64,000 bases of DNA. Source: Spirochaetia bacterium (GTDB lineage Bacteria; Spirochaetota; Spirochaetia; WTKD01). Below the pieces are notes generated by a model. The model saw only the letters and a program-made list of their open reading frames with translations. It did no database searches and was not told the DNA's origin. Position 1 is the stretch's first letter. Each line of letters starts with the position of its first letter. Of this stretch, positions 2,863-63,729 are shown piece by piece. The position numbers and the translations under genes are program-made. The DNA lies in the NCBI GenBank assembly GCA_965243525.1, contig OZ251568.1:1632588-1696587 (forward strand), read 5' to 3'.

Positions 2863-5535
2863 ATGTTAAAAACATTAAAAAAATCGATGTATGTGCTCGT
2901 CGGTGTAGTGCTGGGTATCGCTCTTATAGGGTGTAAATCTCAGTTTTTGGTTACTTCAGGAATCAAATCTGATGTATCTGTATTTACGCGGAGTAGTCAC
3001 TCAGACGATGGGTACGTTGCAATTGCGAATGCGGATGATTTTCAACTAATACGTGATGATCTTGATGGGCATTTCGTATTATCGGCTGACATAAGATTAG
3101 AAGAAGACTTCGTTCCTATAGGAGATGCAAGTGCTCCCTTTGAGGGATCTTTTTCAGGAGATGGTCACATAATTAGTAATTTAAAGATATCGACGACACC
3201 TTATGCGGGGTTATTTGGAACAATAGGAACAAATGGAAGCGTGAATGATCTTATTCTTATCCCTGCAACAGGAACGGAAGAAAATCCAAGTATAGAAGGA
3301 AGCAACTATATAGGAACGCTTGCAGGAGTAAACTATGGAACTCTTAGAAAAATTGCAGTGGAGGGTGGAGTAGTTAGGGGATCGAATATAGTAGGAGGAC
3401 TAGTTGGAGAAAACCATGGAACGATTTCAGCTAGTTATGTCAGGGTAGGCGTTTTAGGAGTTGGAGCCTCAGCTGCTGCGGGCGGGCTTGCTGGAACGAA
3501 TTATGGGACCATAGATTCTAGTTATACGTACAATAGCTATGTGCTGTCAAATGAGGGAACAGCATATGTTGGTGGGATGGTTGGATACAACAATGGAACC
3601 ATTAAGTATAGTTATGCAGACAGTGCAGTAGGGGGAGTGTTTAGGGTTGGTAGTTTTGTTGGAAGAAATGATAGCAATGGAACCATACTAAGCAGTTATT
3701 TTGACGGAAGTCGCGGGCATCATCCTGCAATAGCAAGAGAGATAGGAACAGCAGATGTAGTTGCTTATTACACTATAGATGAAATTGTGCGTAGTTCTGA
3801 TTCTTCTGGTGGGGAGCGGATTAGAAGGGATCATTTTCGCGATTGGACTTTTGATTCTCAATCTGCTGTATGGCATTGGGTTGGGAATGGACAATGGCCT
3901 GATTTTGTGGGGCAAATTGATCCTGTCGGTCCGGTTGATTTTGCAAATTCATCATTATGGCATACTAGGACCTATGATGAGTTAGCATTTAAGGCGACGC
4001 GTGATTCGTATAGCAAGCCAATACCTGCACAACTTGATGCGGGTGTTCGGTTCATTGAATATGATATCCATGATAATGACATTGAAAACAATCATGATTA
4101 TAGTCTCGGATATGACTGGCCAGGGCAGAAAGTACACCATAATGATGGGAATCCGGGATCTAACGATCTGTTTCCTTGGCTTAGTCTCATAGACACTTGG
4201 TCAGATGCTAATCCTGAACATGCCCCCATCACCTTGTTGTTGGATTTGAGAGACAATCTGACTGATAATGGAGACTTTGCACATGGTGATCTCACATTTC
4301 TGAACTATCAACTGTATAAGGCTTTTGGAGAAAAACTCTATGTTCCTTTTGTTCCTCCAGCGGGAGTTGCAAATCCTTGGCCAAAAGCAGAAGACCTTAA
4401 AGGAAAGATCATTATAGTACTGAGTGGCCACGAAGGCACACGCGTAGAATACGTGAATACTGTGACGGGAGAACAGCCATATGGCACGATTGATGATAGT
4501 GGTAGGGTTATTATGGTATATGAAAATGGAAATAGCCTGCACTATTGGACGGGACAAAAAAGAGAAGATGGAACAGTAATATTTATAGAACGAGCAAGAT
4601 ATGGCTCTGGGGCTAATCCTTCTATATCGCTCAACAATAGAGGAGTTGTTGTAGCAACACATGAGAGCGATGGCAATCTTTATTATCGAATTGGACAATT
4701 GGAAGATGACCTGAGACTTGTGTGGCAAACAGAAGATATAGAATACCTTACGGATGCGAGTTATCCCAGAATTGGATTGAATGATGCAGGACTTGTTGTG
4801 GCAGGGTATAAGCAGTCAGCATTCTATGCTCGACCCGGAAGATTAGCTAGTGATGGACGTAGTATTGATTTCGATTCAGCGTATTTAGTTAGTGATTCCA
4901 CGGGAGTTATTCCTCTTTCTCTTTATTTTGAAACCCTTGATGGAACGAATCTATATGCATCTTATGATCTACCGAGAGAACCTGCTGAGACAGTTGCTAT
5001 GGTTTTTGAGGCTTCAACTGATGAGAACAGTGATTCTTTAGAGAACCTGGGTTCTATCGTACTTAATAAACAAGCACCAAGATCGGAATACGGAGTTTTT
5101 TATGTATTTTCTCAGGGTGGACAGTTGATGTATAAGAGGAGTATGGGACTTTTGGGAGGGCAAGAGATCTGGCGTGTTCCAATAACTAATGCGCAAGTTG
5201 CTTTTGTTGAAGCACAGAAAAACAAAGACATATTGGGTCTGTTTCCTCCAGAAGAGATACATGGATCCTTACGACCCCACCTGCATACGTATGCCAGATT
5301 TTTTGCAAGTATGAGTCTTGATAATGGAGGCCTTGATGCAATCAATACAGATAATACTATTCCTGAGAAGCTGATAGATCTTCGAAACAGGTATGGATTA
5401 GTCATACGAGATTGGAAATTTGGCGAATCGAATAGAGAGCGTTCCAGTTGGGACTTACCAAATTTTCCTGCTGTAGATTTCCCTCTATCGGATTGGTATA
5501 ACACCATGTTTGAATCTTTCGAGTATCTTGAATAA
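2863..5535 (+). CDS. Large lipoprotein, paralog B. Same architecture as paralog A (GLUG repeats, PLC-X-like domain, propeller-like repeats, C-terminal domain), but the PLC-like domain has substitutions at both predicted catalytic His positions.
   Basis: Strong RBS (GGAGGT) before the ATG. The signal peptide is MLKTLKKSMYVLVGVVLGIALIGCKS, with the lipobox LIGC. The N-terminus has an IANADDFQLIRDDLDGHFVLSADIRL...FEGSFSGDGHIISNL stretch followed by repeats of GG(L/M)VG.N.GTI..SY. The PLC-like region aligns with paralog A, but TSHNSY is replaced by ATRDSY and LGHNVP by LGYDWP. The C-terminal 120 aa are highly similar to paralog A. Confidence 0.85.
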   Translation: MLKTLKKSMYVLVGVVLGIALIGCKSQFLVTSGIKSDVSVFTRSSHSDDGYVAIANADDFQLIRDDLDGHFVLSADIRLEEDFVPIGDASAPFEGSFSGDGHIISNLKISTTPYAGLFGTIGTNGSVNDLILIPATGTEENPSIEGSNYIGTLAGVNYGTLRKIAVEGGVVRGSNIVGGLVGENHGTISASYVRVGVLGVGASAAAGGLAGTNYGTIDSSYTYNSYVLSNEGTAYVGGMVGYNNGTIKYSYADSAVGGVFRVGSFVGRNDSNGTILSSYFDGSRGHHPAIAREIGTADVVAYYTIDEIVRSSDSSGGERIRRDHFRDWTFDSQSAVWHWVGNGQWPDFVGQIDPVGPVDFANSSLWHTRTYDELAFKATRDSYSKPIPAQLDAGVRFIEYDIHDNDIENNHDYSLGYDWPGQKVHHNDGNPGSNDLFPWLSLIDTWSDANPEHAPITLLLDLRDNLTDNGDFAHGDLTFLNYQLYKAFGEKLYVPFVPPAGVANPWPKAEDLKGKIIIVLSGHEGTRVEYVNTVTGEQPYGTIDDSGRVIMVYENGNSLHYWTGQKREDGTVIFIERARYGSGANPSISLNNRGVVVATHESDGNLYYRIGQLEDDLRLVWQTEDIEYLTDASYPRIGLNDAGLVVAGYKQSAFYARPGRLASDGRSIDFDSAYLVSDSTGVIPLSLYFETLDGTNLYASYDLPREPAETVAMVFEASTDENSDSLENLGSIVLNKQAPRSEYGVFYVFSQGGQLMYKRSMGLLGGQEIWRVPITNAQVAFVEAQKNKDILGLFPPEEIHGSLRPHLHTYARFFASMSLDNGGLDAINTDNTIPEKLIDLRNRYGLVIRDWKFGESNRERSSWDLPNFPAVDFPLSDWYNTMFESFEYLE

Positions 5536-48772: not shown

Positions 48773-48846
48773 GGGGGTATAGCTCAGTTGGCTAGAGCAC
48801 TAGATTTGCATTCTAGGGGTCGAGGGTTCGAGTCCCTTTACCTCCA
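48773..48846 (+). tRNA. tRNA-Ala (anticodon TGC).
   Basis: GGGGGTATAGCTCAGTTGGCTAGAGC...TTTGCAT...GGTTCGAGTCCC with the G3:U70 pair in the acceptor stem. Confidence 0.9.
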
Positions 48847-48984
48847 GAGAAGGATTGACATAGTTTTTGCTATGTGCCATCCTTCAACACAAGACTGAGA
48901 GATCAATGGAAGAATAAGGGAAGGGAAGCAAGCGGGCTAGGAAAAAGAAAAGAGAACCTCCATGAAAGTGGAGGGGAAAAAATA

Positions 48985-50518
<1,534 letters not shown>

Positions 50519-50862: not shown

Positions 50863-50936
50863 GGGCCTGTAGCTCAGCCGGTTAGAGCACTTCTCTGATA
50901 AGGAAGGGGTCAGTGGTTCAAATCCACTCAGGCCCA
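50863..50936 (+). tRNA. tRNA-Ile (anticodon GAT) in the 16S downstream spacer.
   Basis: GGGCCTGTAGCTCAGCCGGTTAGAGC...CTGATAA...GGTTCAAATCCACTCAGGCCCA, close to canonical tRNA-Ile(GAU). Confidence 0.9.
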
Positions 50937-51133: not shown

Positions 51134-51982
51134 ATGATTCTAATAAAATCCGTGCTTATTGTTGCATCAATTGTGCGGAAAAAAGCAAAAATCTATGCAG
51201 AGAGGATATACTCGTATTTTAAATACAGAGACATCCACTGTGATATTTTGCCGTTGCGCGAACTTGATCACGCGGATACTACACGACATTATGATCTTGC
51301 AGTCACCTTGGGTGGTGATGGAACGGTACTATGTGCTTCGCGTATTCTTTCTCCACATAGCACACCGATTCTTCCGATAAACTTGGGAAATTTTGGATTT
51401 ATTACTGAAATAGAGGCTAGCGAGTGGCAAGAGGCGATAGAGCAGTATGAACAGGGAGATCTCATTGCCGGGCAGCGAATATTATTAGAAATAGTGATTC
51501 TCCGCGATGGAAAGAAACTCATTACGAGTGTGGGACTCAATGAAGCGGTTATATCGTCATCGGGAGTTGCGAAGCTAGTGAATTTACGTCTTGAAGTACA
51601 GCAGCAAGAGCTTGGAAGATATCGCGCAGATGGTTTGATCGTTGCTACACCTACGGGATCAACGGCGTATTCAGTTGCTGCAGGAGGTCCCGTCTTGCAT
51701 CCTGAGATGGAGGCGATTATTGTGAATCCCATTTGCCCTTTTACCCTTTCGCATCGCCCCTTGGTACTTCCAGCAAGAGAATTACTACATATTTATATTG
51801 GGGAAAGTCAACGAACTGATATTATTATTACCGTGGATGGACAAAAGGCGATTCCCCTTGAACCAGGTGATATTATTACGATTTCTTCATATAATGAACG
51901 TGCGCACATCATCCGTTCACCTAAGCGGAGCTATTATGAGGTCCTATGTAAAAAATTAGGATGGGGAGGGGGAAGCCAATGA
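51134..51982 (+). CDS. nadK: NAD(+) kinase.
   Basis: GGDGTVL motif, NE/DGxxxxT region; 282 aa. Confidence 0.85.
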   Translation: MILIKSVLIVASIVRKKAKIYAERIYSYFKYRDIHCDILPLRELDHADTTRHYDLAVTLGGDGTVLCASRILSPHSTPILPINLGNFGFITEIEASEWQEAIEQYEQGDLIAGQRILLEIVILRDGKKLITSVGLNEAVISSSGVAKLVNLRLEVQQQELGRYRADGLIVATPTGSTAYSVAAGGPVLHPEMEAIIVNPICPFTLSHRPLVLPARELLHIYIGESQRTDIIITVDGQKAIPLEPGDIITISSYNERAHIIRSPKRSYYEVLCKKLGWGGGSQ

Positions 51983-53661
51983 TTGAGTCACTAGAGATTT
52001 ATAATTATATCCTTGTAGATCATATCGTCATAACGTTTGATTCTGGGTTTACGGTGTTAACTGGTGAGACAGGGGCAGGAAAATCGATACTTGTTGGAGC
52101 TCTGAAGATTCTCGCAGGAGAAAAACTTTCTGATGCATATATTCGCCCCGGAAAAGATGAGGCGAGTTTTACTGCGGTGTGGAATATAAAAAACCGTAGA
52201 GCAGTGCATGCCTTTTTGCAAGATCGTGGATTATCTTGCGACGATGAACAATTGATCGTGCGGAGAACAATTCGTGTCGGCGGAAGGCCTTCGTCCTATA
52301 TTCAATCACAGCAAGTTACGCAAAAGGATCTTGAAACACTGTCTGCGTTGCTCGTTGATCAGCATTCGCAACATGAACATCAGTCCTTGTTTGTTTCGCA
52401 GGTGCAGCGAACGCTTCTTGATACCTATGCGGGGTGTGTCGATGCAGTGGGTGCGATAACCCGTTCCTATCACGCGGTGCAGAAATTGCATCAAGATTTG
52501 CAAGAACATCACGAGGTGTTGAACAAGATTGTTGCTGAAAAAGAATATCTCCAACATGCGATGGAAGAAATTGAACAAGCAGGGCTGCAATCGGATGAGG
52601 ATCGTGGTCTTGAAGAGGAATTGAACGTTCTTGCGAATAGCAAGGATATAGAAGAACTCTGTGGACAGATAGGTCAGTTGTTTGAAGGAGAAAAGGGTGT
52701 CACTGCAGGACTTGGGCAGGTGCTACGCTTGATTCAATTGCTGAGCAGAAAAAGCACTACATTTGCCGCATTGGAAGAACGTATAACAGCAGCGGATATT
52801 GAACTACGAGACATTCATTCAGATTTTTCAGATAAGGTTGGGCGGTTGATATTTGATCCTGCACATCTGGTTCGAGTTGAAAAGAGACTGGGATTGATCG
52901 ACCTTCTTAAGTCAAAGTACGGGAAAACTATTGATGCTATTTTGACATTTAAAGTGGACGCACAGAAGAAACTTGAGCACCTTGACCAGTCTGATGAAGA
53001 GATTGCTCTGCTTACCCGAAAATTACGTGATGAAGAGAAAAAATTATTCCAATTGTCAAAGCAGGTTTCTTTGAAGCGAATGCAGGTTGCGAAGAAACTC
53101 ACCGGTGAAATTACCGAACATTTGCGATTACTTGGGATGCCGCATGCGCAGTTAACAGTGCAGGCAGATATATTAAAAAATGCAAACGGAACAGCACAAT
53201 GCGGTCCGTATGGCATTGATGAGATAACATTTTTGTTTACCGCTAACGCTGGCGCGCAACAAACGCAGCTAAAACGTGCTGCATCTGGTGGGGAATTGTC
53301 GCGCATTATGCTTGCTATTAAATCGGTGTTTGCCTATGAGGACACCATTCCGACGCTTATTTTTGATGAGGTTGATGCAGGTATTGGGGGTGAGATTGCG
53401 CTTCGTGTAGCAGAACATCTCAAGAAACTTGCAGAGACAAAACAAGTGCTCTGTATCACACATCTTGGCTCACTCGCTACGTATGCAGATCATCATTTCA
53501 AGGTTTCAAAAACAGTGCAGAACAATGAAACATTTACCGAAGCAAGGTTGATTGAGCACGAGGAACGCATCACTGAGGTTGCTCGCATGCTCTCAGGTAA
53601 CAGCGATGCCTCTGAATCCCGCAACCATGCAAAATCACTCTTGGAAAAGGTACACGCATGA
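51979..53661 (+). CDS. recN: DNA repair protein RecN.
   Basis: N-terminal Walker A LTGETGAGKSIL, long coiled-coil, C-terminal SMC-like signature. ATGA overlap with nadK. Confidence 0.9.
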   Translation: MIESLEIYNYILVDHIVITFDSGFTVLTGETGAGKSILVGALKILAGEKLSDAYIRPGKDEASFTAVWNIKNRRAVHAFLQDRGLSCDDEQLIVRRTIRVGGRPSSYIQSQQVTQKDLETLSALLVDQHSQHEHQSLFVSQVQRTLLDTYAGCVDAVGAITRSYHAVQKLHQDLQEHHEVLNKIVAEKEYLQHAMEEIEQAGLQSDEDRGLEEELNVLANSKDIEELCGQIGQLFEGEKGVTAGLGQVLRLIQLLSRKSTTFAALEERITAADIELRDIHSDFSDKVGRLIFDPAHLVRVEKRLGLIDLLKSKYGKTIDAILTFKVDAQKKLEHLDQSDEEIALLTRKLRDEEKKLFQLSKQVSLKRMQVAKKLTGEITEHLRLLGMPHAQLTVQADILKNANGTAQCGPYGIDEITFLFTANAGAQQTQLKRAASGGELSRIMLAIKSVFAYEDTIPTLIFDEVDAGIGGEIALRVAEHLKKLAETKQVLCITHLGSLATYADHHFKVSKTVQNNETFTEARLIEHEERITEVARMLSGNSDASESRNHAKSLLEKVHA

Positions 53662-54437
53662 ACACCAGTATTCTTGAAAGCTCAGAATATATCGAGCGAA
53701 TGAAAATGCTCCGCTCGCTATCTGTAAGATATGAAAAATCCGCAGAACAACAGTTGATAACACCTGATTCTCATGAGTCCCAGCAGATATTGCAGTATAG
53801 CGATATGCTATTGAATGCGCTCTCGTATAAAATCGCTGAATCAGAAACATCTCTGTATGAATTTAAACTGCGCAATCAGCGAGTTTTAAATGCGGGGCGT
53901 AAGCTTATCTATGAAGTATTGATTCGTCTTGAAGGACTTGTTAGCAATCTCATTGATGTTCCGCTGAGTGATTTATTGGTCTATCAAAAAAAAATAGAAG
54001 CAGTAGATGATACTATGCGGTCTTCTTTAATACGTAAACTCTTTATTGCACTGGATCATATAAAAATTGCCTATGGGGATAACACAAAATGGAAGTGGAC
54101 ATTCACAGAACTTGTGGGAAGAGCCTCAGTGATCAGTAAAAATCTTCTCCATTTGAAGCGAATCAGCGCAGGGTTATGGCCAGAACAACCGGGGTATAAA
54201 GAGTGTCGAGTTCATTTGAAACTAGTTATTGAAAAATTGCAGTTTGCAGCAGGTGAATATCGTTCAAAATATGAATTAGCTGGAAAGCAGTTAATCGATA
54301 TGCAATTTGCCATGAAATTGTTAAATGCTACTCGACAATTGGCGATGTTGACTGCTGATCGAGAACTTGCTGATGAGCTGAAGCGAAAACTCAGCGTTTG
54401 GAAACAAAAACTGGAATTTGAAGTAAAACGAAAATGA
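53658..54437 (+). CDS. Hypothetical cytoplasmic alpha-helical protein, translationally coupled to recN.
   Basis: ATGA overlap with the recN stop. No signal peptide, and no motif I recognise. Confidence 0.5.
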   Translation: MNTSILESSEYIERMKMLRSLSVRYEKSAEQQLITPDSHESQQILQYSDMLLNALSYKIAESETSLYEFKLRNQRVLNAGRKLIYEVLIRLEGLVSNLIDVPLSDLLVYQKKIEAVDDTMRSSLIRKLFIALDHIKIAYGDNTKWKWTFTELVGRASVISKNLLHLKRISAGLWPEQPGYKECRVHLKLVIEKLQFAAGEYRSKYELAGKQLIDMQFAMKLLNATRQLAMLTADRELADELKRKLSVWKQKLEFEVKRK

Positions 54438-55450
54438 CCATTTTACGGGTGGTTTTTCTCTACGTATTCTTTTTTGCTCTTGTATTTTTCGCTCTACTCT
54501 TGCTCCCGTATAAGCAAAATGAAGAACATGCTGTCAATCTGCAGTGGGCAACAACTGTATCTGAACTAGGCAAAAATAGTGTTAATCGGACTGCAAACCT
54601 ACGTGCATTTCAATACAGGAATCGGTTTGGGTATATTCATCCAGAAACAGGAAGAGGCTTCTCATTATCCACCCAGAACCTTGTCGCACAATCGGATCAA
54701 CTTTTTGCCCAAAAAGAAACAACCGAAAATACGTATTTGTTATTTGATTCAACCGGAGCTTTTATACAAGCGATTCCAATAAAAGGGGAGCTTATCATCC
54801 ACAACGATGAGGTTGCCCTTGTGAGCGAAGATTATCACAGCATATATCAGATACACGACAGAGTAATTGTGAAAACAGAATTTGGAAATGCAGTTGTTTC
54901 TTCGATTTTTAGCTCAGAAAATATTGTAGCATACTTGTTTTCTTTGGGACTTGTGGATCTTTCTTCTGATCAAGTACTATTCACTCCAGATTCGATGGTC
55001 ATTGATTATAAAAATAGCGGCGCGATGACCACGGTGCTCCGCATCTACGAAGAGGATATATCATCTAGCGTGGTTGAGATCTATGCAATAAATAGACAGG
55101 AAGAACAACAACTGAAGCTCTCGCGCGTTATCGCGTCTTCACCAGTCCATATTGAGACAAACGATTCACATAGCTTGATTGCCTTTGCCAATATTGCTCA
55201 GTTTTATTTGGGTGATGTGGTAGCGCAAGAGTATACGTACAATGGAATGGTGGAGAAGGTGTTCGCAAGTGATGAAATCTTTGCAATCCTTGTGCGTAAC
55301 TCAAAAGGCCAATCACAGATTTCTATATATTCAGCAGATGCGCAGTTTATTGCGGGGTTGTCCCTGAGTGCAACAGATGAGGTCATATCAGTGTTTGACA
55401 ACAGCATACTTTTTGGAACGCAGTATACCTTGCTCTTGGTTTCGTTGTAA
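54434..55450 (+). CDS. Hypothetical bitopic membrane protein (N-terminal TM anchor, beta-rich periplasmic domain).
   Basis: ATGA overlap with the upstream gene. N-terminal hydrophobic segment VVFLYVFFFALVFFALLLL. Confidence 0.5.
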   Translation: MTILRVVFLYVFFFALVFFALLLLPYKQNEEHAVNLQWATTVSELGKNSVNRTANLRAFQYRNRFGYIHPETGRGFSLSTQNLVAQSDQLFAQKETTENTYLLFDSTGAFIQAIPIKGELIIHNDEVALVSEDYHSIYQIHDRVIVKTEFGNAVVSSIFSSENIVAYLFSLGLVDLSSDQVLFTPDSMVIDYKNSGAMTTVLRIYEEDISSSVVEIYAINRQEEQQLKLSRVIASSPVHIETNDSHSLIAFANIAQFYLGDVVAQEYTYNGMVEKVFASDEIFAILVRNSKGQSQISIYSADAQFIAGLSLSATDEVISVFDNSILFGTQYTLLLVSL

Positions 55451-56247
55451 TGCGTTGCAAAATTATCAGTGTTCTAATTTTTTGTATATCTGCCGTATCA
55501 GGCCATGCGCAATGGCGTATGCCCATTGAACAACCGCTGCTACGTACTGCATTTTCGCCGGATAGATATTTAACCACGATAGAAAGTAACCAATCTGAAA
55601 ACAGATATATCTACCCCATTGCATCAGGACGATTAGTACATACGATTGATAGCGAAACTGTTATTTCCGCGGTTACTAATACTGCCTCACCAGAACAAGA
55701 GCGCTATCAAAGGGTGTTGATCTTACACGACAATGGTTATGCGAGTATCTATATGGGAAATTTTATCGTTCTTCACCGCGAACCAATTATTTCGGAATCA
55801 CAACCCATTGCAATCCTCCAAAATGAGGCTGCATTCTTGTTTGCTTTGTACGATGTTGAACGCCATGCTTGGATCAATCCATATTTTGTATTCATGCCAG
55901 AGGTTGCCCGCAGCAATCATATTCGCTACAATGCCGTTCTCAAAAATACACATGAATCGTTGTTTGATCGAAGTATCGTTACCCAAGATGCCAAATTGCA
56001 AATCTATCAACAACCCGATCAAGAAACCATTCTTCCCATTGCAGAACAAGTCTTTTTAAATGAGATTCTTATAAAAACCAACTATTTTACTCATGTTTTG
56101 TTAGGATCAAAAGATCTGTTTCCAGATACGGCAATCACCATTCAAGTAACAGAAGATTTTGGCGTGCGTGGTGACATCTCCATTCGGCCGTTCTACTCGG
56201 AAACAAATTCAAATTCTCAAGCGTTTTTTTTCAGAATCGTGAAATAA
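55450..56247 (+). CDS. Secreted protein with a degenerate LytM/M23-peptidase-like domain (catalytic His/Asp residues apparently not conserved).
   Basis: Signal peptide MRCKIISVLIFCISAVSGHA. LILHDNGYASIYMGNF and ...FLFALYDVERHAWINP resemble the M23 core (IDHGNGYSTLYAHL / GPHLHFEV...NP) but lack HxxxD and HxH. The start overlaps the upstream stop (TAATG). Confidence 0.45.
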   Translation: MRCKIISVLIFCISAVSGHAQWRMPIEQPLLRTAFSPDRYLTTIESNQSENRYIYPIASGRLVHTIDSETVISAVTNTASPEQERYQRVLILHDNGYASIYMGNFIVLHREPIISESQPIAILQNEAAFLFALYDVERHAWINPYFVFMPEVARSNHIRYNAVLKNTHESLFDRSIVTQDAKLQIYQQPDQETILPIAEQVFLNEILIKTNYFTHVLLGSKDLFPDTAITIQVTEDFGVRGDISIRPFYSETNSNSQAFFFRIVK

Positions 56248-56333
56248 TTCTTTTTAATTGTTGCCAAAACAGAATTTCATCACTAAACTATTTTTGTGGG
56301 GAAAAGTGGGGAATTGTAGAAAATTGTGGAGTT

Positions 56334-56774
56334 ATGCTAACAGGACAATACAAGACAAGCCTTGATGAGAAGGGGCGGATCCTCATCCCTAATCGATTGC
56401 GCAATGCGATTCTTGGTTCTCAAGTGATTGTCACTGCAGGCATTGATTCTTGTCTGTGGGTTTTTTTACCGAACACCTGGCAGGAATTGTCAGATAAGAT
56501 AATGGAAACTTCATTGTTTTCACAAAAGGCGCGATTGCTGCAGCGAAGAATTGTTGCTCCAGCGATGGAACTTGACCTTGATAAAATGGGACGCATTCTT
56601 ATTCCACAAAACTTGCAGGACATCGCCTTGGTTAAGAAAAATTGTATTCTCCATGGGTTGAAAAAATTTATTGAAATTTGGGATGCGGAAATGTACGAGG
56701 CATACCTCGAAGCCAATGAAAGTGATTTCAAAAAGCTGCTGAAGAGTTGGGAGGGACCGTCGTCATATGAGTGA
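56334..56774 (+). CDS. mraZ: Transcriptional regulator MraZ.
   Basis: MLTGQYKTSLDEKGRILIPNRLR and the duplicated DxxxR motif. Confidence 0.9.
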   Translation: MLTGQYKTSLDEKGRILIPNRLRNAILGSQVIVTAGIDSCLWVFLPNTWQELSDKIMETSLFSQKARLLQRRIVAPAMELDLDKMGRILIPQNLQDIALVKKNCILHGLKKFIEIWDAEMYEAYLEANESDFKKLLKSWEGPSSYE

Positions 56775-57699
56775 AACCTACCATACTCCGGTAATGTTTC
56801 AAGAGGTGGCATCGTTTATCGGAAAACTCGATGAACCAAAGATGTTTATCGATGCTACTCTTGGTGAGGGCGGTCATTCAGCACATATATTGGAAACATT
56901 TCCGCATATTTTTTGTGAGGGCATTGATGCAGATGATCGCATGATATCTCGTGCTCAAGAGCGGCTAGCAGGATTCGAAGAGAGAACTCGCTTACATACC
57001 ATGTGGTTTGATGAATACTTTGCGCAACATGCACCGAAAAATGCCGCTTCGGCGATACTCTTTGATTTGGGCATTTCTACGTATCATTATACAGCAAAGG
57101 ATCGAGGGTTTAGCTTCGATAGTGAAGATCCTCTAGATATGCGCATAGCGAGAGAACAAACACGCAGCGCAGAAGACGTGTTGTATGAAAACAGCGAGCG
57201 GGAATTAGCAGATATACTCTATACATATGGAGAAGAGCATCGTGCACAAAAAATCGCCCGCGCTATTCATAAGCATTTGATTGTTCCCCGTGTCCACCCA
57301 ATAACCTGCAAGGATCTAGCATATGTTGTGAAAGGATGTTTTGCAAAGGAACGACGTTATCGCTTTCCACATCCCGCAACGAAGGTGTTCCAAGCCTTGC
57401 GAATTGTTGTCAACAATGAACTTGAACGGCTAAAAAAGACACTTTCTGCTGCGATTGCGGCATTGGCGCATTTAGGAGTGATTCTTGTTATCTCATTTCA
57501 CTCATTAGAAGACAGAATAGTTAAGCATTTTTTTAAATCGCACGACATTCAAAATGGAAACCCCGACGATGTCGATGGAACACCTCGTCTGCGGATACTT
57601 ACAAAAAAGGTTATGCGTGCTGATGAAAAAGAAATTGCGACAAACCCAGCCTCGCGTAGTGCAAAAATGAGAGTTGCACAGAGGGTTATGCATGAATAA
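56767..57699 (+). CDS. rsmH: 16S rRNA (cytosine1402-N4)-methyltransferase RsmH (MraW).
   Basis: HTPVMFQEV...DATLGEGGHS motifs. Confidence 0.9.
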   Translation: MSETYHTPVMFQEVASFIGKLDEPKMFIDATLGEGGHSAHILETFPHIFCEGIDADDRMISRAQERLAGFEERTRLHTMWFDEYFAQHAPKNAASAILFDLGISTYHYTAKDRGFSFDSEDPLDMRIAREQTRSAEDVLYENSERELADILYTYGEEHRAQKIARAIHKHLIVPRVHPITCKDLAYVVKGCFAKERRYRFPHPATKVFQALRIVVNNELERLKKTLSAAIAALAHLGVILVISFHSLEDRIVKHFFKSHDIQNGNPDDVDGTPRLRILTKKVMRADEKEIATNPASRSAKMRVAQRVMHE

Positions 57700-57982
57700 A
57701 TCAATGAACATGGTTTGGGTTGGAAGCATTGTAGCGGTACTTGTTCTGTTTGCGACGCATGTCTATGTCTCCTGGAAATATCAGGAACAGCAAGAACAAA
57801 TTTCTCACCTTGAATCAGAACTTGAGCGCAGCCATTTGTTATACAATGAAAAATTCCTTTCACTCGCTGAAAAAAAGCACAACACAAGAACGCTGTTATA
57901 TCAGCGGATACTATCAGAAGAGCGTTCTTTTCACTCTATTCTTGATCAACTACCGCTCAAGGATGGCTCAGCTCGTGATTAG
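57692..57982 (+). CDS. ftsL: FtsL-like cell division protein (small bitopic protein with coiled coil).
   Basis: Position between rsmH and murF. A single TM (VWVGSIVAVLVLFATHVYV) is followed by a coiled-coil (QEQISHLESELE). GAGGG RBS before the ATG at 57692. Confidence 0.55.
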   Translation: MNKSMNMVWVGSIVAVLVLFATHVYVSWKYQEQQEQISHLESELERSHLLYNEKFLSLAEKKHNTRTLLYQRILSEERSFHSILDQLPLKDGSARD

Positions 57983-59588
57983 CTATGCTCAATTCATTCA
58001 CCATCTTTCCTCTTTTGAAGATGGGCCAGAGATATTAGCTGAACCTGGAGTAAAAAATCTTGATGAATCCTTTGTTGTGCAATGGGATTCTCGTGTTTGC
58101 GATAAGCAGTCGCTTTTTGTTGCATTGCGTGGTATGCATGCCGACGGACATACTTTTATCGACCAGGCATATGGCCAGGGATGTAGGGCGTTTTTGGTGC
58201 AACAGAACTGGGTGAAAGCGCATTTCGCGTTTTTTAAGAAGCTCATGAAATCTGCTTTGTGCATTGTTGTGAATGATGTGCGAGCATCTCTTTTTTGGGC
58301 GGCAAAACAGCATCGCGCCTCGCTGCAGGCCTTGAGAATCGGAATAACGGGGAGCGTCGGAAAAACAAGCGTGAAAGAGTGGATAAAAACGATCACAGGC
58401 ATGCAGTACAATGTTGTGGCCACTCAGGGAAATTTGAATACCCCCATAGCAATTGCAGCGAGAATCCTGTCTTTATCAGAAGAGACGGATATCTTCATCT
58501 GTGAGCTTGGCATTGATATCCCAGGTGAGATGCAAACATTGGTTGATCTTGTGCTTCCTCATCTTGCTATTATTACAACTATTGGCAGTGCTCATATTGG
58601 AAATTTTGCATCGCAAGAGGAGCTTGCCTATGAAAAGACGCAGATCCTTTCTCGATTGGCAGAAACGGCGCGTGAGATACCAAAATTACGTGTACGGGCA
58701 AATCTCCCAACTGCTTGGGTGCCCCGACAAGATGCCTATATGAATCTATTTAAAACCGTTGCACAGGATGTTTCTGTTTCACAACATTTGGATACTGCTT
58801 GTTGGGATAATGACTCGACTGATGCACAGACGGGAAAAATGCAATTTCAAGGCGATATCGAAAATCATAAATATATTGTTGTCTTGAATACCCAATTGGA
58901 CATCTACCCTCTCACCATTGCTATAGCGGTTGCACAATCCATTGGCGTTTTGCCAAGGGTGATTCAGGAAGCCATTTCGCAGGGAATTGAATTATCCGGG
59001 CGGGGAAACATCATTACCATTCCAAAAGGGATTGTCATCCACAGCGCATACAACGCCTCTTATGAGTCGATGATGGGTGCCTTGATCGATCTTGCAAAAA
59101 GAAGCCATCGCAACCATAGTATTGCCATCCTTGCCCCGATGAATGAGCTCGGTGATCATGCTGATTTCTATCACGCCAAGGTGCTTCGATATTTAGCTGA
59201 TTCTTCTATCCAAGATGTTATTTTGATAGGAGCAGCCTGGAAGCCGTTTATTGCAGACTACGCAGCCTATCATTTTGTCGATACCTGTGATGAGGCATTA
59301 GCAATCTACAATACCATTGTTCAAGAAAACCAAGTTGTATTGCTGAAGGGAAGTCGCTCCTATGCGCTTGAGCAACTGCTTGATGGGTTAACGCTACAGA
59401 ATAATCCTGATAAAGGACATGTCAAAAAAACAGCAGAGACAGATCATTATCGAGATCGCGATTTTGAGATTCACCAGTGTTCGAGAGTAGAGAACATCTC
59501 CCAAACACCACTCCAAATCTTGGATTCGGTATGTGTCAGTAATATTTTCTCTCAGGCATATTTTGGTAAAAAAAGGAATAATTTATGA
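57963..59588 (+). CDS. murF: UDP-N-acetylmuramoyl-tripeptide--D-alanyl-D-alanine ligase MurF, with a C-terminal extension of about 80 aa.
   Basis: ITGSVGKTS P-loop and Mur ligase domains. The ATG at 57963 (MAQLVISY) was chosen; the track ORF begins earlier and overlaps ftsL. Confidence 0.75.
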   Translation: MAQLVISYAQFIHHLSSFEDGPEILAEPGVKNLDESFVVQWDSRVCDKQSLFVALRGMHADGHTFIDQAYGQGCRAFLVQQNWVKAHFAFFKKLMKSALCIVVNDVRASLFWAAKQHRASLQALRIGITGSVGKTSVKEWIKTITGMQYNVVATQGNLNTPIAIAARILSLSEETDIFICELGIDIPGEMQTLVDLVLPHLAIITTIGSAHIGNFASQEELAYEKTQILSRLAETAREIPKLRVRANLPTAWVPRQDAYMNLFKTVAQDVSVSQHLDTACWDNDSTDAQTGKMQFQGDIENHKYIVVLNTQLDIYPLTIAIAVAQSIGVLPRVIQEAISQGIELSGRGNIITIPKGIVIHSAYNASYESMMGALIDLAKRSHRNHSIAILAPMNELGDHADFYHAKVLRYLADSSIQDVILIGAAWKPFIADYAAYHFVDTCDEALAIYNTIVQENQVVLLKGSRSYALEQLLDGLTLQNNPDKGHVKKTAETDHYRDRDFEIHQCSRVENISQTPLQILDSVCVSNIFSQAYFGKKRNNL

Positions 59589-60664
59589 TTCGTGCATTGT
59601 TGGTACCGCTGACTAGTTATATTACTGGCTTTAATATATTTCGGTATATTACATTTCGTTCTTTTATGGCGGCATTGACTGCACTTATTGTTAGTTTATT
59701 GCTTGGGCCATTTCTCATAAAACGTCTCACCGCATATCGACTTTCGCAACAAATCCGAGACGATGGGCCGCAGTCGCATAAGAAAAAAAGTGGAACTCCC
59801 ACGATGGGTGGCATACTCATTATTTTTGCGGTAATTTTTTCGTCTTTGTTGTGGATGAATTTTGAAAACCAGTCGAGTTGGATCGCCATAATTACCATGT
59901 TGGGATTTGGGCTCATAGGATTCTTGGATGATGCGCTAAAGCAACGCCAAAAGGGAACCAAGGGGCTTGAGGCAAAGTTCAAGTTATACAGCCAGTTTGC
60001 CATCAGCCTTTTAGTCAGTGTATTCATCTATTTTCAGGGCGATGAATCAGCGAGCTTGTTGTATATTCCGTTTTTGAAAAACGTATCTGTTGACCTTTCT
60101 CTTCTGTATATACCGTTTACCACTCTATTATTAGTGGCGACCTGCAATGCAGTAAATGTTACCGACGGACTTGATGGGCTTGCAATTGGATTGGTGTTGA
60201 TGGTTTCTGCGACATTTGCGATCCTTGCCTATTTAAGTGGGCACGTAGAATTTGCACAATACCTTCAAATACCGTTTATCGCGAGCAGCGGAGAATTAAC
60301 GGTTATCTCTATGGCCTTGGCAGGTGCCTCAGTAGGATTTCTTTGGTTTAACGCACATCCTGCGCAAATTATGATGGGCGATTCGGGAAGTATGGCTCTT
60401 GGTGGTCTCATCGGTATTCTTGCAATTTTGATCAAAAAAGAAATGGTGCTGATTATCTGTGGTGGCGTCTTCGTTATTGAAACCTTATCAATTATTATTC
60501 AAGTTATTTCGTACAAATTTTTCAAGAAACGTGTGTTCTTAATGTCTCCTATCCATCACCATTTTGAGTTGAAGGGATGGTCAGAGACACAGGTGGTGCA
60601 GCGTTTTTGGATCCTGGGAGGGGTGTGTTCGATTTTGAGTTTATTGATACTAAAAACACGATGA
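59585..60664 (+). CDS. mraY: Phospho-N-acetylmuramoyl-pentapeptide-transferase.
   Basis: Polytopic, with NAVNVTDGLDGLA and MGDSGS motifs. Confidence 0.92.
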   Translation: MIRALLVPLTSYITGFNIFRYITFRSFMAALTALIVSLLLGPFLIKRLTAYRLSQQIRDDGPQSHKKKSGTPTMGGILIIFAVIFSSLLWMNFENQSSWIAIITMLGFGLIGFLDDALKQRQKGTKGLEAKFKLYSQFAISLLVSVFIYFQGDESASLLYIPFLKNVSVDLSLLYIPFTTLLLVATCNAVNVTDGLDGLAIGLVLMVSATFAILAYLSGHVEFAQYLQIPFIASSGELTVISMALAGASVGFLWFNAHPAQIMMGDSGSMALGGLIGILAILIKKEMVLIICGGVFVIETLSIIIQVISYKFFKKRVFLMSPIHHHFELKGWSETQVVQRFWILGGVCSILSLLILKTR

Positions 60665-61791
60665 AACCGCAGATGTCTAGATTGCACATACCTCTTATTC
60701 TTGCTTTTTGCCTATTGGTCTCAATAGGGGTGATTGTGCTGTTTTCGGCATCATACCCACGAGCAGAAGTGTTATTTGACGATCCATTCTATTTTGTGAA
60801 ACGGCAATTGTTCTGGGTTGCCTCAGGACTTCTTCTTGGGGTTGTGATATTGTTTGTTCCTTTTGGATTTCTTCGAAAGATAGCGCCTGTTTTGATGTTT
60901 GGGGGGATTATACTCCTCTGTTTGCCTTTGATTCCTGGAATAGGAGTATCCATTCTTGGTGCACGCCGATGGATATCAGTGTTTTCATTTACGTTTCAGC
61001 CCTCAGAGTTTATTCGATTTCCCATAGTCATATACCTCGCGCACATGATTGCAAAAAAAGAAAAACGTATGGATGATTTTTTCAACGGGGTGCTTCCTCT
61101 GTCTTGCGTGATCGCTTTGGTCACTATCATCATCTATGTACAAAACGATTTTTCGACAGCGATGTTCATCTTTGTCGTGTCATTTGCAATGCTCTGTGTC
61201 GCAGGATTACGCATACAGCATATCGCCGCATTTTTTGTTGCGAGCATACCACCTATCGTTGTTTTTTTGTTTACCCAAGAATATCGTGTCAGACGTCTGT
61301 TGACGTATTTTTTTCCCGATGTTGACCTAACTGGCACAGGATACCAAGCGCATATCTCACGCAGTGCAATTGCACGAGGGGAATTTTTCGGGCTGGGAAT
61401 AGGGCAAAGTCTGAGCAAGCATGGGGTTCTGCCAGAAGCGCATTCTGACTTTTTGGCGGCCGTTTTTGCCGAAGAGCATGGATTGGTGGGGATTGTATGG
61501 CTTTGTGCATTATTCGGTGTGTTCACCTATTGTGGGTATGCCATTACGCTCCAAGCAAAGGATAGTTTTATTGCGCTCTCTGCATTTGGGGTTACCACCT
61601 TTATTGCCCTGCAAGCGTGCATTAACCTTGCGGTCGTGGTTAACGTTTTGCCGACGACGGGGTTGCCCTTGCCGTTTTTTTCGGCCGGAGGATCGTCGAT
61701 GATCAACTCCATTATCTTGGGAGCCTATCTTATCAAGGTTTCGCTCTATCAGCAGGCCCAAAATTTAAACCAGGAAATTGTTCATGCATAG
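60661..61791 (+). CDS. ftsW: SEDS-family peptidoglycan glycosyltransferase / cell division protein FtsW.
   Basis: Polytopic SEDS protein with an ATGA overlap with mraY and a GLPLPFFSAGGSS motif. Confidence 0.85.
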   Translation: MKPQMSRLHIPLILAFCLLVSIGVIVLFSASYPRAEVLFDDPFYFVKRQLFWVASGLLLGVVILFVPFGFLRKIAPVLMFGGIILLCLPLIPGIGVSILGARRWISVFSFTFQPSEFIRFPIVIYLAHMIAKKEKRMDDFFNGVLPLSCVIALVTIIIYVQNDFSTAMFIFVVSFAMLCVAGLRIQHIAAFFVASIPPIVVFLFTQEYRVRRLLTYFFPDVDLTGTGYQAHISRSAIARGEFFGLGIGQSLSKHGVLPEAHSDFLAAVFAEEHGLVGIVWLCALFGVFTYCGYAITLQAKDSFIALSAFGVTTFIALQACINLAVVVNVLPTTGLPLPFFSAGGSSMINSIILGAYLIKVSLYQQAQNLNQEIVHA

Positions 61792-62533
61792 GAGTATCAA
61801 TACCATTGTTACAGTGCTTGCTATTTCCTTGGGAGGGGTTATAGTGTGTGAAATCATCTATATCCTCGTGTTGGTGCCACTGGTGAAGATAAAAACCATC
61901 GTACTCCAGACAGATTTGTCGGTGAGTCAAAAAGAACTGTTTCAATTTTTAGGGCTTGCAGATCCTCTGCTCTTTTTTCAAGTTGATGAAGAGGTTCTTA
62001 CGCATTCACTCACAGGGCATCCGGAAATCATCTCAGCTGATGTGGAAAAGCAGTTTCCGGATACGCTGCATATTACCCTCTATGGAAGAACGCCAGTTGC
62101 CTATGTGGCATTAGATGATGCAGCAGATGCGAACTTGCTCTTACTTGATGATGCAGGGGTGATCTATTCACGTATAGCAGCGCTTCCTTCATCTTCATTG
62201 CCCATTGTCTCCTTCTATAACGATTATCCGATGGAGAGCGATAGTGCAGAGCAACAGTTACAAATGCTTGCTGCGCTTTTGAAAAATCTTCAAGAAAACT
62301 ATCTGAACTCGTATACGCATATTTCTGAAATTGTATTGTTGCCTGATCAGTTGATGTACATCTATACAATGTCACAATTTGTTCCAATTCGTCTTTCAGC
62401 AACTATTGCAGTATCAACCCTTCATACCGTTATTTCGCAGACGCCCTATCTATACAATACCGTTGATGCAAATGCATTCTTTGAGGTTGATGTGCATGGT
62501 GAGCACGCAGTGCTCCGGAGGAGGAGATTGTGA
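61784..62533 (+). CDS. ftsQ: FtsQ/DivIB-like cell division protein (N-terminal TM plus POTRA-like domain).
   Basis: Position between ftsW and ftsA; a single N-terminal TM. ATG at 61784 (the track start is TTG). Confidence 0.55.
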   Translation: MHRSINTIVTVLAISLGGVIVCEIIYILVLVPLVKIKTIVLQTDLSVSQKELFQFLGLADPLLFFQVDEEVLTHSLTGHPEIISADVEKQFPDTLHITLYGRTPVAYVALDDAADANLLLLDDAGVIYSRIAALPSSSLPIVSFYNDYPMESDSAEQQLQMLAALLKNLQENYLNSYTHISEIVLLPDQLMYIYTMSQFVPIRLSATIAVSTLHTVISQTPYLYNTVDANAFFEVDVHGEHAVLRRRRL

Positions 62534-63729
62534 TTGTTGCAGGCTTGGATGTAGGTAGTTACGCAATTCGGTTGGCGGTTGCTGAGGTTCAAGACGGAAC
62601 CACACAACTTATCGATATTGTGCAGGTGCCCTCTCAGGGAATGAAAAAAGGCATTGTTGTAAACCTCGAAACAGTGACGCAATCCATTCGCAATGCGGTA
62701 TACCAATTTTTGGAGAAGCATGATCTTCAAATACAAGAAGTGGTTTTGGCCCTGGGTGGAACGCACATCGAGAGCAAAAATAGCAAGGGTGTTGTTGCTA
62801 TTGAAGAGCGACAAAAAGGGGTTACCCCAGATGATCTTCAGCGAGTTATGGAAGCAGCCAGTGCGGTTCCGCTTTCATTGGATTCTGAAATCATCCACCG
62901 CATCCCCAATGAATACACTATTGATGGCATGCAACAAGTTGCAAATCCAATCAACATGTTGGGGGTTCGCCTCGAATTGAATGTGCATATTATTGCAGTG
63001 TCCTCAACTGGTGCGCAGGGACTTGTCTTAGCAGCAAACCGTGCCGGGTTGGTGGTTTCAAAGTTGGTATACGATGCCTATGCATCATCAAAAATTGTAT
63101 TGGCTGCAGATGAACAAGAATTAGGAGCGATCCATGTTGTCATTGGACATGATACTACTTCAGTTATCTGCATAAAGGATGGGGGAGTCTGTTGTAGTTT
63201 TGTCATTCCCATTGGGGGGCGACACATTACGAATGATATTGCCGTAGTGCTGCAAACATCTTTGCAAGAAGCAGAGCGGATTAAACTGCACCACGGAGTT
63301 TGTTACGCAGATATCATCGATGAGCACGATGAAATTCTTATACAGGGAATCGGGGGACATCGCCCCCGCTTATGTGCCCCAAAAGATCTTTGTCGCATTA
63401 TTGAAGCCCGTCTTTTTGAAATTTTTGATGTAATGCGAACAATATTAGAACGATCTCAGTATAAACTACAGGATTTTCACACAATGGTTCTCAGCGGAGG
63501 AGGTGCGCTGCATCTTGGAATTACCGAGTTGATCTATGCAGAATACAATATACCTGCTCGCATCGGTATTCCGCGTCGTATGGAAGGGCTCGACGCCAGC
63601 AGGCGCACGCCCTTATGGAGTACCACCCTTGGTCTTATTGGAGAAGCTCCGGTGTATACCGGCGAACTTGCTTCCAAACAAAGACGTTCCGGTGGTTTTG
63701 TTTCATGGATAAGAAATTTTTTCGAATAA
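62530..63729 (+). CDS. ftsA: Cell division protein FtsA.
   Basis: Actin-fold N-terminus IVAGLDVGS; GGAGGAGG RBS; GTG start. Confidence 0.9.
   Translation: MIVAGLDVGSYAIRLAVAEVQDGTTQLIDIVQVPSQGMKKGIVVNLETVTQSIRNAVYQFLEKHDLQIQEVVLALGGTHIESKNSKGVVAIEERQKGVTPDDLQRVMEAASAVPLSLDSEIIHRIPNEYTIDGMQQVANPINMLGVRLELNVHIIAVSSTGAQGLVLAANRAGLVVSKLVYDAYASSKIVLAADEQELGAIHVVIGHDTTSVICIKDGGVCCSFVIPIGGRHITNDIAVVLQTSLQEAERIKLHHGVCYADIIDEHDEILIQGIGGHRPRLCAPKDLCRIIEARLFEIFDVMRTILERSQYKLQDFHTMVLSGGGALHLGITELIYAEYNIPARIGIPRRMEGLDASRRTPLWSTTLGLIGEAPVYTGELASKQRRSGGFVSWIRNFFE

Follow-up and report, generated by a model that had tools for sequence, protein, structure and literature searches.

Two independently conserved spirochaetal gene units, nadK-recN-A and a propeller-LytM pair, probably make up the gene run that abuts mraZ in a Spirochaetia bacterium

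The dead LytM factors EnvC, NlpD, ActS, and DipM are proteins that direct or stimulate other cell wall hydrolases. In spirochaetes, the control of cell wall hydrolases is poorly understood, and the phylum Spirochaetota includes syphilis and periodontal pathogens. Here, we describe three genes, which we call A, B, and C, in a stretch of 64,000 nucleotides (the window) from a Spirochaetia bacterium (GenBank assembly GCA_965243525.1, contig OZ251568.1, positions 1,632,588 to 1,696,587, forward strand). The three genes follow nadK and recN and end shortly before mraZ, the first gene of the division and cell wall (dcw) cluster. An earlier interpretation, made from the letters of this DNA (the sequence-only reading), had joined A, B, and C into a single trans-envelope system for hydrolase activation. 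We consider it reasonably probable, instead, that the run is a composite in which two spirochaetal units, each conserved independently of the other, follow one another without a break and abut mraZ in a small (~1.8 Mb) genome. The first unit, nadK-recN-A, would be a phylum-wide operon core in which A, judging from its position, is coexpressed with RecN. In the second unit, B-C, the beta-propeller of B would hold or position C on the periplasmic side of the inner membrane. C would be a noncatalytic LytM factor, binding peptidoglycan or acting as a regulator, and would direct or stimulate a different wall hydrolase.

Comparison with the described systems places C near them in domain content but not in architecture. 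Like DipM of Caulobacter, EnvC, NlpD, and ActS, C has a degenerate LytM domain and, by prediction, is exported to the periplasm. However, no LysM or coiled-coil Pfam match was found in C or its orthologs, whereas NlpD and DipM carry LysM and EnvC carries a coiled coil; the C-terminal region of C is a beta-rich domain instead. The genomic partner of C is a single-pass propeller protein rather than FtsEX, and, unlike in the DipM/EnvC group, one third of C orthologs are probably active enzymes. FtsEX-EnvC shares with B-C the general idea that an inner membrane protein presents a dead LytM protein in the periplasm. The two differ in that A is built of helical repeats rather than as an ABC ATPase, in that B has one transmembrane (TM) helix and a propeller where FtsX has four TM helices with periplasmic loops, and in that A is genomically separable from B-C. 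SpoIIQ of Bacillus is likewise a degenerate LytM protein held at the membrane as a scaffold and not an enzyme, but its anchor and LytM domain lie on one polypeptide whose partner is SpoIIIAH, whereas in the present case a distinct propeller protein would serve as the anchor; moreover, the window locus, unlike that of SpoIIQ, has no sporulation context. BamB and other PQQ propellers are periplasmic protein-interaction scaffolds, and the profile of the B family matches them, although B has a predicted N-terminal TM anchor in the inner membrane, is not an outer membrane lipoprotein, and has no beta-barrel assembly machinery (BAM) context. Our literature searches turned up no account of a LytM protein that has a single-pass beta-propeller as its partner and nothing specific on a spirochaete LytM/propeller system. 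None of the adaptors known for dead LytM proteins (FtsEX, LysM, or coiled-coil targeting) was seen at the window locus, and the B-LytM pair, whose active site has been lost in about two-thirds of the sampled orthologs, is a testable candidate for positioning or regulating wall remodeling.

Relatives of the three genes were gathered in several ways. Word-indexed homolog searches covering 5.8 billion proteins yielded one to two relatives per protein; besides the window sequence itself, A, B, and C each matched a 13-kb Logan contig, L001, and A matched one more fragment. Gene order on L001 is the same as in the window, nadK-recN-A-B-C-mraZ-rsmH-ftsL-murF-mraY-ftsW-ftsQ-ftsA, and the proteins of the two are 72% identical in the case of RecN, 69% in that of A, 47% in that of B, and 42% in that of C. 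An exhaustive HMMER profile search was made with A only, the best conserved of the three proteins, and returned 243 representative clusters (101 at <1e-30, nearly all of 255 to 285 residues), while relatives of B and C were recovered via synteny. When genomes were scanned with the A alignment, at least 580 species genomes gave a match, and the neighborhood counts given here for A rest on the best 80 loci among them, which do not include the genome of the window itself. All 80 loci are from Spirochaetota, including Treponema, Spirochaetaceae, Spirochaetales, Brevinematales, Sediminispirochaeta, Gracilinema, and others, and the closest A among them, at 52% identity, comes from L002, a Spirochaetaceae metagenome-assembled genome (MAG). 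We refer to the window, L001, and L002 as the window lineage. Open reading frames (ORFs) were called in all loci and then searched with the window proteins and iterated hidden Markov models (HMMs), which identified 29 B homologs in the A-anchored loci, all of them outside the Treponema-labeled group. A second, B-anchored scan of metagenomes added 17 loci, so that 46 loci holding B were available in total.

These loci show two tight associations. A lies directly 3′ of recN in ~77 of the 80 loci; the recN stop and the A start are at most 30 nt apart in 69 of 76 loci, the two genes overlap in 30, and nadK is found upstream of recN in 66 of 80. B and an M23 gene are adjacent in 38 of the 46 loci holding B, and in the B-anchored metagenome sample M23 follows B in 12 of 12 testable loci; B and C are thus a conserved, coupled pair. 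Among the eight B loci without a called M23 gene, six end at a contig edge, one (L022) reflects an ORF-calling artifact, and one (L025) has no M23 gene called. By Pfam annotation, the typical order is cheW, a degT-like aminotransferase gene, nadK, recN, A, cdd on the opposite strand, B, M23, an S-adenosylmethionine (SAM) methyltransferase gene, DUF4912, GH57, and mraZ-rsmH-ftsL-murF. The class I SAM methyltransferase (Methyltransf_23) gene comes next after M23 in 31 loci (for example, L009 13132-14001, L096 3359-4240, and L089 4032-4883, plus 28 more) and may belong to the B-M23 module.

The two associations are separable from each other. In 51 loci, largely Treponema-labeled and many from termite gut, A is present but no B lies within 10 kb, and ABC transporter genes or an HD-domain gene come after A. 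Conversely, metagenome contig L096, which has neither recN nor A, carries B-M23-methyltransferase between a phosphotransferase system (PTS) EIIA regulator gene and divIC. In 28 of the 40 loci holding both A and B, cdd, encoding cytidine deaminase, stands between them on the opposite strand. Since A occurs without B, and since L096 has B-M23 without A, the conserved units are recN-A and B-M23(-methyltransferase), and the earlier expectation that A, B, and C would be conserved together as one unit is not supported. Two other possibilities were considered for genes in these neighborhoods and rejected: that the HD-domain protein after A in some Treponema loci is a divergent B, which Pfam did not support, and that the ORF lying between A and B on the opposite strand is spurious, which its clear match to cytidine deaminase (8.4e-22) contradicts. 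The window lineage has none of cdd, the methyltransferase gene, DUF4912, or GH57 at this position, and none occurs anywhere in the 64-kb window; because these genes are missing, C adjoins mraZ.

Gene B (54434..55450, + strand) encodes 338 residues. By profile similarity, it is a predicted bitopic membrane protein whose single TM helix is followed by an ectodomain of the PQQ/BamB-like beta-propeller type. Direct scans of B itself against Pfam and NCBIfam returned no match. Read from the translation, the protein begins M-T-I-L-R and continues with ~19 hydrophobic residues, which places a predicted N-terminal TM anchor at residues ~6 to 24 (VVFLYVFFFALVFFALLLL; 54449..54505, + strand) and leaves a cytoplasmic part of ~5 residues. 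The position of the hydrophobic N terminus is kept across 26 homologs, whereas their cytoplasmic tails differ greatly in length and show no sequence conservation. An hhalign comparison of window-lineage B with its relatives gave 98.4% and an E value of 9.5e-15 over 313 columns. Searched against the PDB, the B family profile matched the designed propeller Cake10 (5.5e-15, with up to seven blades matched), 3hxj (2.4e-11), and BamB (4.8e-4), and the Pfam matches of the family were to various propeller models, to PQQ_2 (2 of 26 members), and to DUF5711 (2 of 26), all under the curated cutoffs. The N-terminal hydrophobic segment and the matches to PQQ-type propeller profiles bear out the description of B as an N-terminal TM anchor with a beta-rich periplasmic domain.

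Gene C (55450..56247, + strand; 265 residues) encodes a predicted secreted protein with a degenerate LytM (M23) domain followed by a C-terminal beta-rich domain. Direct searches of C against Pfam and NCBIfam returned no match, and a C profile returned none against PDB sequences at E values up to 10. Its assignment came through relatives. Positional orthologs of C match Pfam Peptidase_M23 (PF01551) at 2.5e-19, 1.2e-11, and 8.6e-6, and hhalign of a profile of three C sequences against the positional orthologs gave 97.1% and an E value of 7.5e-11 over 194 columns, an alignment that takes in the LytM core as well as some of the C-terminal domain. An M23-domain HMM built from the relatives alone detected window C at 1.8e-4 and its L002 ortholog at 4.4e-4, with no other M23 match among the ORFs of the 64-kb window. 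The best PDB match of the C ortholog family was DipM (7.6e-15), and further matches were to zoocin A and other M23 enzymes, SpoIIQ (1.5e-7), EnvC, and ShyA. From the hhalign column mapping and a table of catalytic columns, the degenerate core of C was placed at residues ~22 to 150 (55513..55899, + strand). Within it, HxxxD has become L-T-T-I-E, the stretch with the His of "YAHL" reads Y-M-G-N, and HxH reads F-L-F, so that the five catalytic alignment columns read L, E, gap, A, and L, with no catalytic residue kept. A predicted signal peptide (MRCKIISVLIFCISAVSGHA, followed by QW; 55450..55509, + strand) was read from the translation. The N-terminal hydrophobic segment is kept in the window, L001, and L002, and H19-A20 occurs in the window and L001. 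Position F11 does not vary among the three sequences, C12 is common only to the window and L001, and F11-C12 could be an alternative, lipobox-like site. These results agree with the sequence-only reading that C bears a signal peptide and is a catalytically degenerate M23/LytM protein, and they identify it, as far as profile comparison can, as a very divergent new member of the dead LytM kind.

Loss of the active site is widespread in this family but not general. We scored five positions (His and Asp of HxxxD, the "YAHL" His, and the two His residues of HxH) in 40 B-adjacent M23 proteins, of which 13 keep H/D/H/H/H and 27 are degenerate, with one or more positions lost; the M23 orthologs contrasted were L037, L044, L069, L006, L004, and others versus L009, L057, L068, L077, and L081. 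Patterns differ among the degenerate members (FDNHH, SDNHF, TWNQG, and SIRGY) within what is one orthologous, syntenic M23 family. The distribution suggests repeated and independent conversion of enzyme to pseudoenzyme in the B-adjacent M23 family. In relatives with an intact site, the M23 ortholog would itself be an endopeptidase. Because all five catalytic and metal-binding residues are lost, C is predicted to be unable to cleave peptidoglycan, and it could then act only by binding, whether to peptidoglycan, to B, or to another hydrolase. The analysis shows the structure of the genes, their homologies, the loss of the catalytic residues, the retention of the B-C pairing, and the separability of A from B-C, whereas binding between B and C, regulation by C, and a connection with division are inferences. 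Amidase activation by C is suggested by analogy with the described dead LytM factors.

A pattern of complete active-site loss also raises the question of whether C is what is left of an M23 enzyme that is decaying in a reduced genome and has lost its function. In addition to the loss of all five residues, C is the least conserved of the three proteins (42% identity to L001 versus 69% for A), Pfam no longer detects it, and neighbors seen in relatives are absent here. However, the ORF is intact, at 260 to 265 residues, in the window, L001, and L002, although the C proteins of these three lineages are only 33 to 42% identical (58 to 67% different), and 63 columns are invariant across them, including WINPY and FYSE. 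Degenerate forms are, furthermore, the majority (27 of 40) in relatives with large genomes, where they are still coupled to B, as is typical of functional dead LytM factors. We therefore regard decay as very improbable.

The same M23 counts bear on another account of the pair, in which B-C would be a module for cell shape or sidewall peptidoglycan trimming, rather than a factor for division or amidase activation, and the dead LytM protein would scaffold an active paralog encoded elsewhere. Csd1/Csd2, a LytM pair of Helicobacter, is the basis of this comparison with cell shape systems. The intact endopeptidase site in 13 of 40 orthologs suggests an ancestral endopeptidase rather than amidase activation, and the module is not consistently beside the dcw cluster. 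M23 paralogs are, in addition, common in the phylum, and several M23 proteins are reported in Treponema pallidum (PMC4403809). On the other hand, the 64-kb window holds no active M23 paralog, and the divIC gene that adjoins the module on L096, together with the presence of mraZ within 5 to 8 kb in most loci, fits division equally well. We consider a trimming module unlikely, but a serious rival to amidase activation.

The composite reading must also be set against the proposal that A in the cytoplasm, B in the membrane, and C in the periplasm constitute one split trans-envelope hydrolase-activation system, like FtsE-FtsX-EnvC and tied to the dcw cluster. Several observations weigh against the composite and, in part, speak for this single system. 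In 11 of the 46 loci, no gene separates A from B and A-B-M23 is contiguous; the same holds for the window lineage, where A, B, and C are contiguous with overlapping stop and start codons in the window, L001, and L002. A is found upstream of B in nearly every non-Treponema Spirochaetia locus with enough sequence, C is a degenerate LytM protein by its profile matches, and mraZ lies 5 to 8 kb downstream in many relatives. Counting against the composite in other respects, no terminator-like site was found after C, and read-through into mraZ is possible; no partner hydrolase was identified, the 64-kb window being without another M23 match and amidases not having been searched for; and the AlphaFold2 (AF2) model of C, made from an alignment of two sequences only, has a predicted local distance difference test (pLDDT) score of 31, the M23 fold resting on profile evidence. 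Nevertheless, A keeps its place by recN in the 51 loci without B, L096 has B-M23-methyltransferase without recN or A, and cdd splits A from B in 28 loci, all of which weakens a functional A-B link. The cytoplasmic tail of B, at ~5 residues and without conservation of length or sequence, offers little for a cytoplasmic partner to recognize consistently; A has no P-loop or other ATPase features and only generic helical-repeat matches; and B has a single TM helix and a propeller where FtsX has four TM helices. Relatives carry the methyltransferase gene, DUF4912, and the GH57 branching enzyme gene between M23 and mraZ, and mraZ has a conserved promoter-like site of its own. Given the separability of A, the cdd insertion, the short tail of B, and the lack of likeness to FtsE or FtsX, we no longer favor the view of A, B, and C as one trans-envelope unit, which is weakened and which we now judge quite improbable, and retain the composite of nadK-recN-A and B-C.

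Within the composite, gene A (53658..54437, + strand; 259 residues) belongs to the recN side. It encodes a predicted cytoplasmic, all-alpha, TPR-like helical-repeat protein of an unnamed, Spirochaetota-wide family. The AF2 model of A (pLDDT, 95) is all-alpha with TPR-like repeats, in support of the prior description of A as a cytoplasmic helical protein, and the family shares the motif YGDN[ST]KWKW-F-EL-GR. No Pfam match was found among 49 members of the A family and no NCBIfam match among 18, and all members are named "hypothetical protein" in their sources; A and B accordingly stand in no recognized family, as had been stated. A search for P-loops, ATPase features, and ATPase family matches in A returned none, its fold matches were to generic helical-repeat proteins only, and no specific structural or sequence relative was found among TPR, 14-3-3, and helical-repeat proteins. 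Because A sits so close to recN, a function connected with RecN is the most promising lead for it, and we know of no stable RecN partner. As an unnamed family with a high-confidence predicted fold, present in at least 580 Spirochaetota genomes, A is a candidate RecN-associated factor. Neither A nor the B-LytM pair changes current concepts, and both are inexpensive to test.

The literature on T. pallidum offers some context for A. In this organism, TPASS_0441 is an NAD kinase and TPASS_0444 a LysM-M23 protein (PMC4403809), and TP0443 is a conserved hypothetical protein of 267/284 residues adjoining recN (PMC3373638). TP0443 resembles the A family in following recN, in having nadK upstream, in its size, and in the LysM-M23 gene TPASS_0444 nearby, and from its position and size it is probably the A ortholog. 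Titz et al. placed TP0443 in "DNA metabolism and/or repair" on the basis of its two-hybrid partners GidB and RecX and its recN neighborhood (PMC2386257), and it is also a two-hybrid partner of FliG-2 (PMC1943423). A DALR domain has been cited for TP0443, but Pfam scans of 49 A-family members did not support one. In some host-associated Treponema, such as the rumen Treponema MAG L063 (5292-7392), the gene after A encodes an HD-domain protein and the next one a LysM-LysM-M23 (NlpD-like) protein. An M23 gene thus stays near nadK-recN-A even where B is absent, as in L063 and in T. pallidum (TPASS_0441-0444; PMC4403809), with a different architecture.

A bolder version of the two-unit arrangement would make A a dedicated accessory subunit of RecN and, at the same time, make the B-LytM pair, with its methyltransferase neighbor, a new means of LytM anchoring and control that has switched repeatedly between active and dead forms. 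The idea of a RecN-A complex arises because A is near-universally tight to recN and because TP0443, if it is the A ortholog, contacts RecX. We put this combined proposal forward tentatively, as possible rather than likely, and keep to the composite in its plainer form.

Downstream of C, mraZ (56334..56774, + strand; Pfam MraZ, 3.3e-35) opens the dcw cluster. The spacer between C and mraZ is 86 nt by coordinates and not 87 nt, as given earlier, although the adjacency itself stands. A promoter-like site, TTGCCA-17-TAAACT, and four direct repeats (GTGGGG, GTGGGG, GTAGAA, and GTGGAG, at a 10-nt spacing) occupy 56261..56331 on the + strand, as found by promoter scan, inspection of the sequence, and conservation. 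Mean column identity of the 86-nt spacer among the window, L001, and L002 is 84%, compared with 33 to 42% for the adjoining C protein. The MraZ operator of Escherichia coli has a similar arrangement of repeats, and by this analogy the spacer repeats are a probable MraZ autoregulatory operator. Because the spacer with its promoter-like site and repeats is conserved, the dcw cluster has what we take to be its own control region. Placement of the module directly upstream of the dcw cluster, which the sequence-only reading had stressed, is correct for the window lineage, whereas the functional tie drawn from it is not supported, since relatives have the methyltransferase gene, DUF4912, and GH57 in between and mraZ has its own promoter-like site. 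The dcw cluster itself runs mraZ-rsmH-ftsL-murF-mraY-ftsW-ftsQ-ftsA in both the window (56334-63729) and L001 (5274-12633), with no ftsI, murE, murD, murG, or murC between ftsL and ftsQ, a short order that we take to resemble the arrangement in Borrelia.

The run upstream of mraZ is compact. It opens with nadK (51134..51982, + strand), which encodes an NAD kinase (Pfam NAD_kinase_C, 1.4e-33; NAD_kinase, 2.9e-16) and overlaps recN (51979..53661, + strand; 560 residues), encoding an SMC-like DNA repair ATPase (Pfam SMC_N, 1.6e-17), at an ATGA. This nadK/recN overlap depends on taking the recN start at the seventh codon; the longest recN ORF begins at 51961, and the ATG at Met-7 gives 560 residues, equal to the called RecN of L001. 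Overlaps of the ATGA type are also read from the window sequence at recN/A and A/B, and a TAATG joins B and C. The ORF table and the sequence agree on these positions, so that the chain of ATGA and TAATG overlaps linking nadK, recN, A, B, and C is confirmed, and a scan of the window found no terminator-like site inside the nadK-to-C run. However, stop/start overlaps of 1 and 4 nt are frequent throughout the window, with at least 12 further same-strand junctions of this kind, and the overlaps reflect a compact genome and not special coupling. Because such overlaps are common throughout the window, those of the run carry little functional signal. A, B, and C are, from their patterns of conservation, real genes, each with homologs under selection. 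The public annotation of gene C (P0001) starts at Met-24 and gives 242 residues, which loses both the predicted signal peptide and the B/C TAATG overlap. Since the hydrophobic N terminus and a W22-R23-x-P25 motif are kept in L001 and L002, the comparison supports the 265-residue start over the annotated one.

Other features of the window lie outside the run. Just upstream of nadK is a complete 16S rRNA gene (48982-50517), flanked by tRNA genes at 48773-48846 and 50863-50936, in the position where relatives have cheW and the degT-like aminotransferase gene. Rfam found no 23S or 5S gene in the window, which indicates that the rRNA genes are unlinked or more than 13 kb apart. Two adjacent ORFs, at 101-2437 (778 residues) and 2863-5535 (890 residues), have weak, subthreshold matches to a Ca2+-dependent phosphatidylinositol-specific phospholipase C (PI-PLC)-like domain, and the first also matches a GLUG motif; the two may be paralogous surface or secreted proteins.

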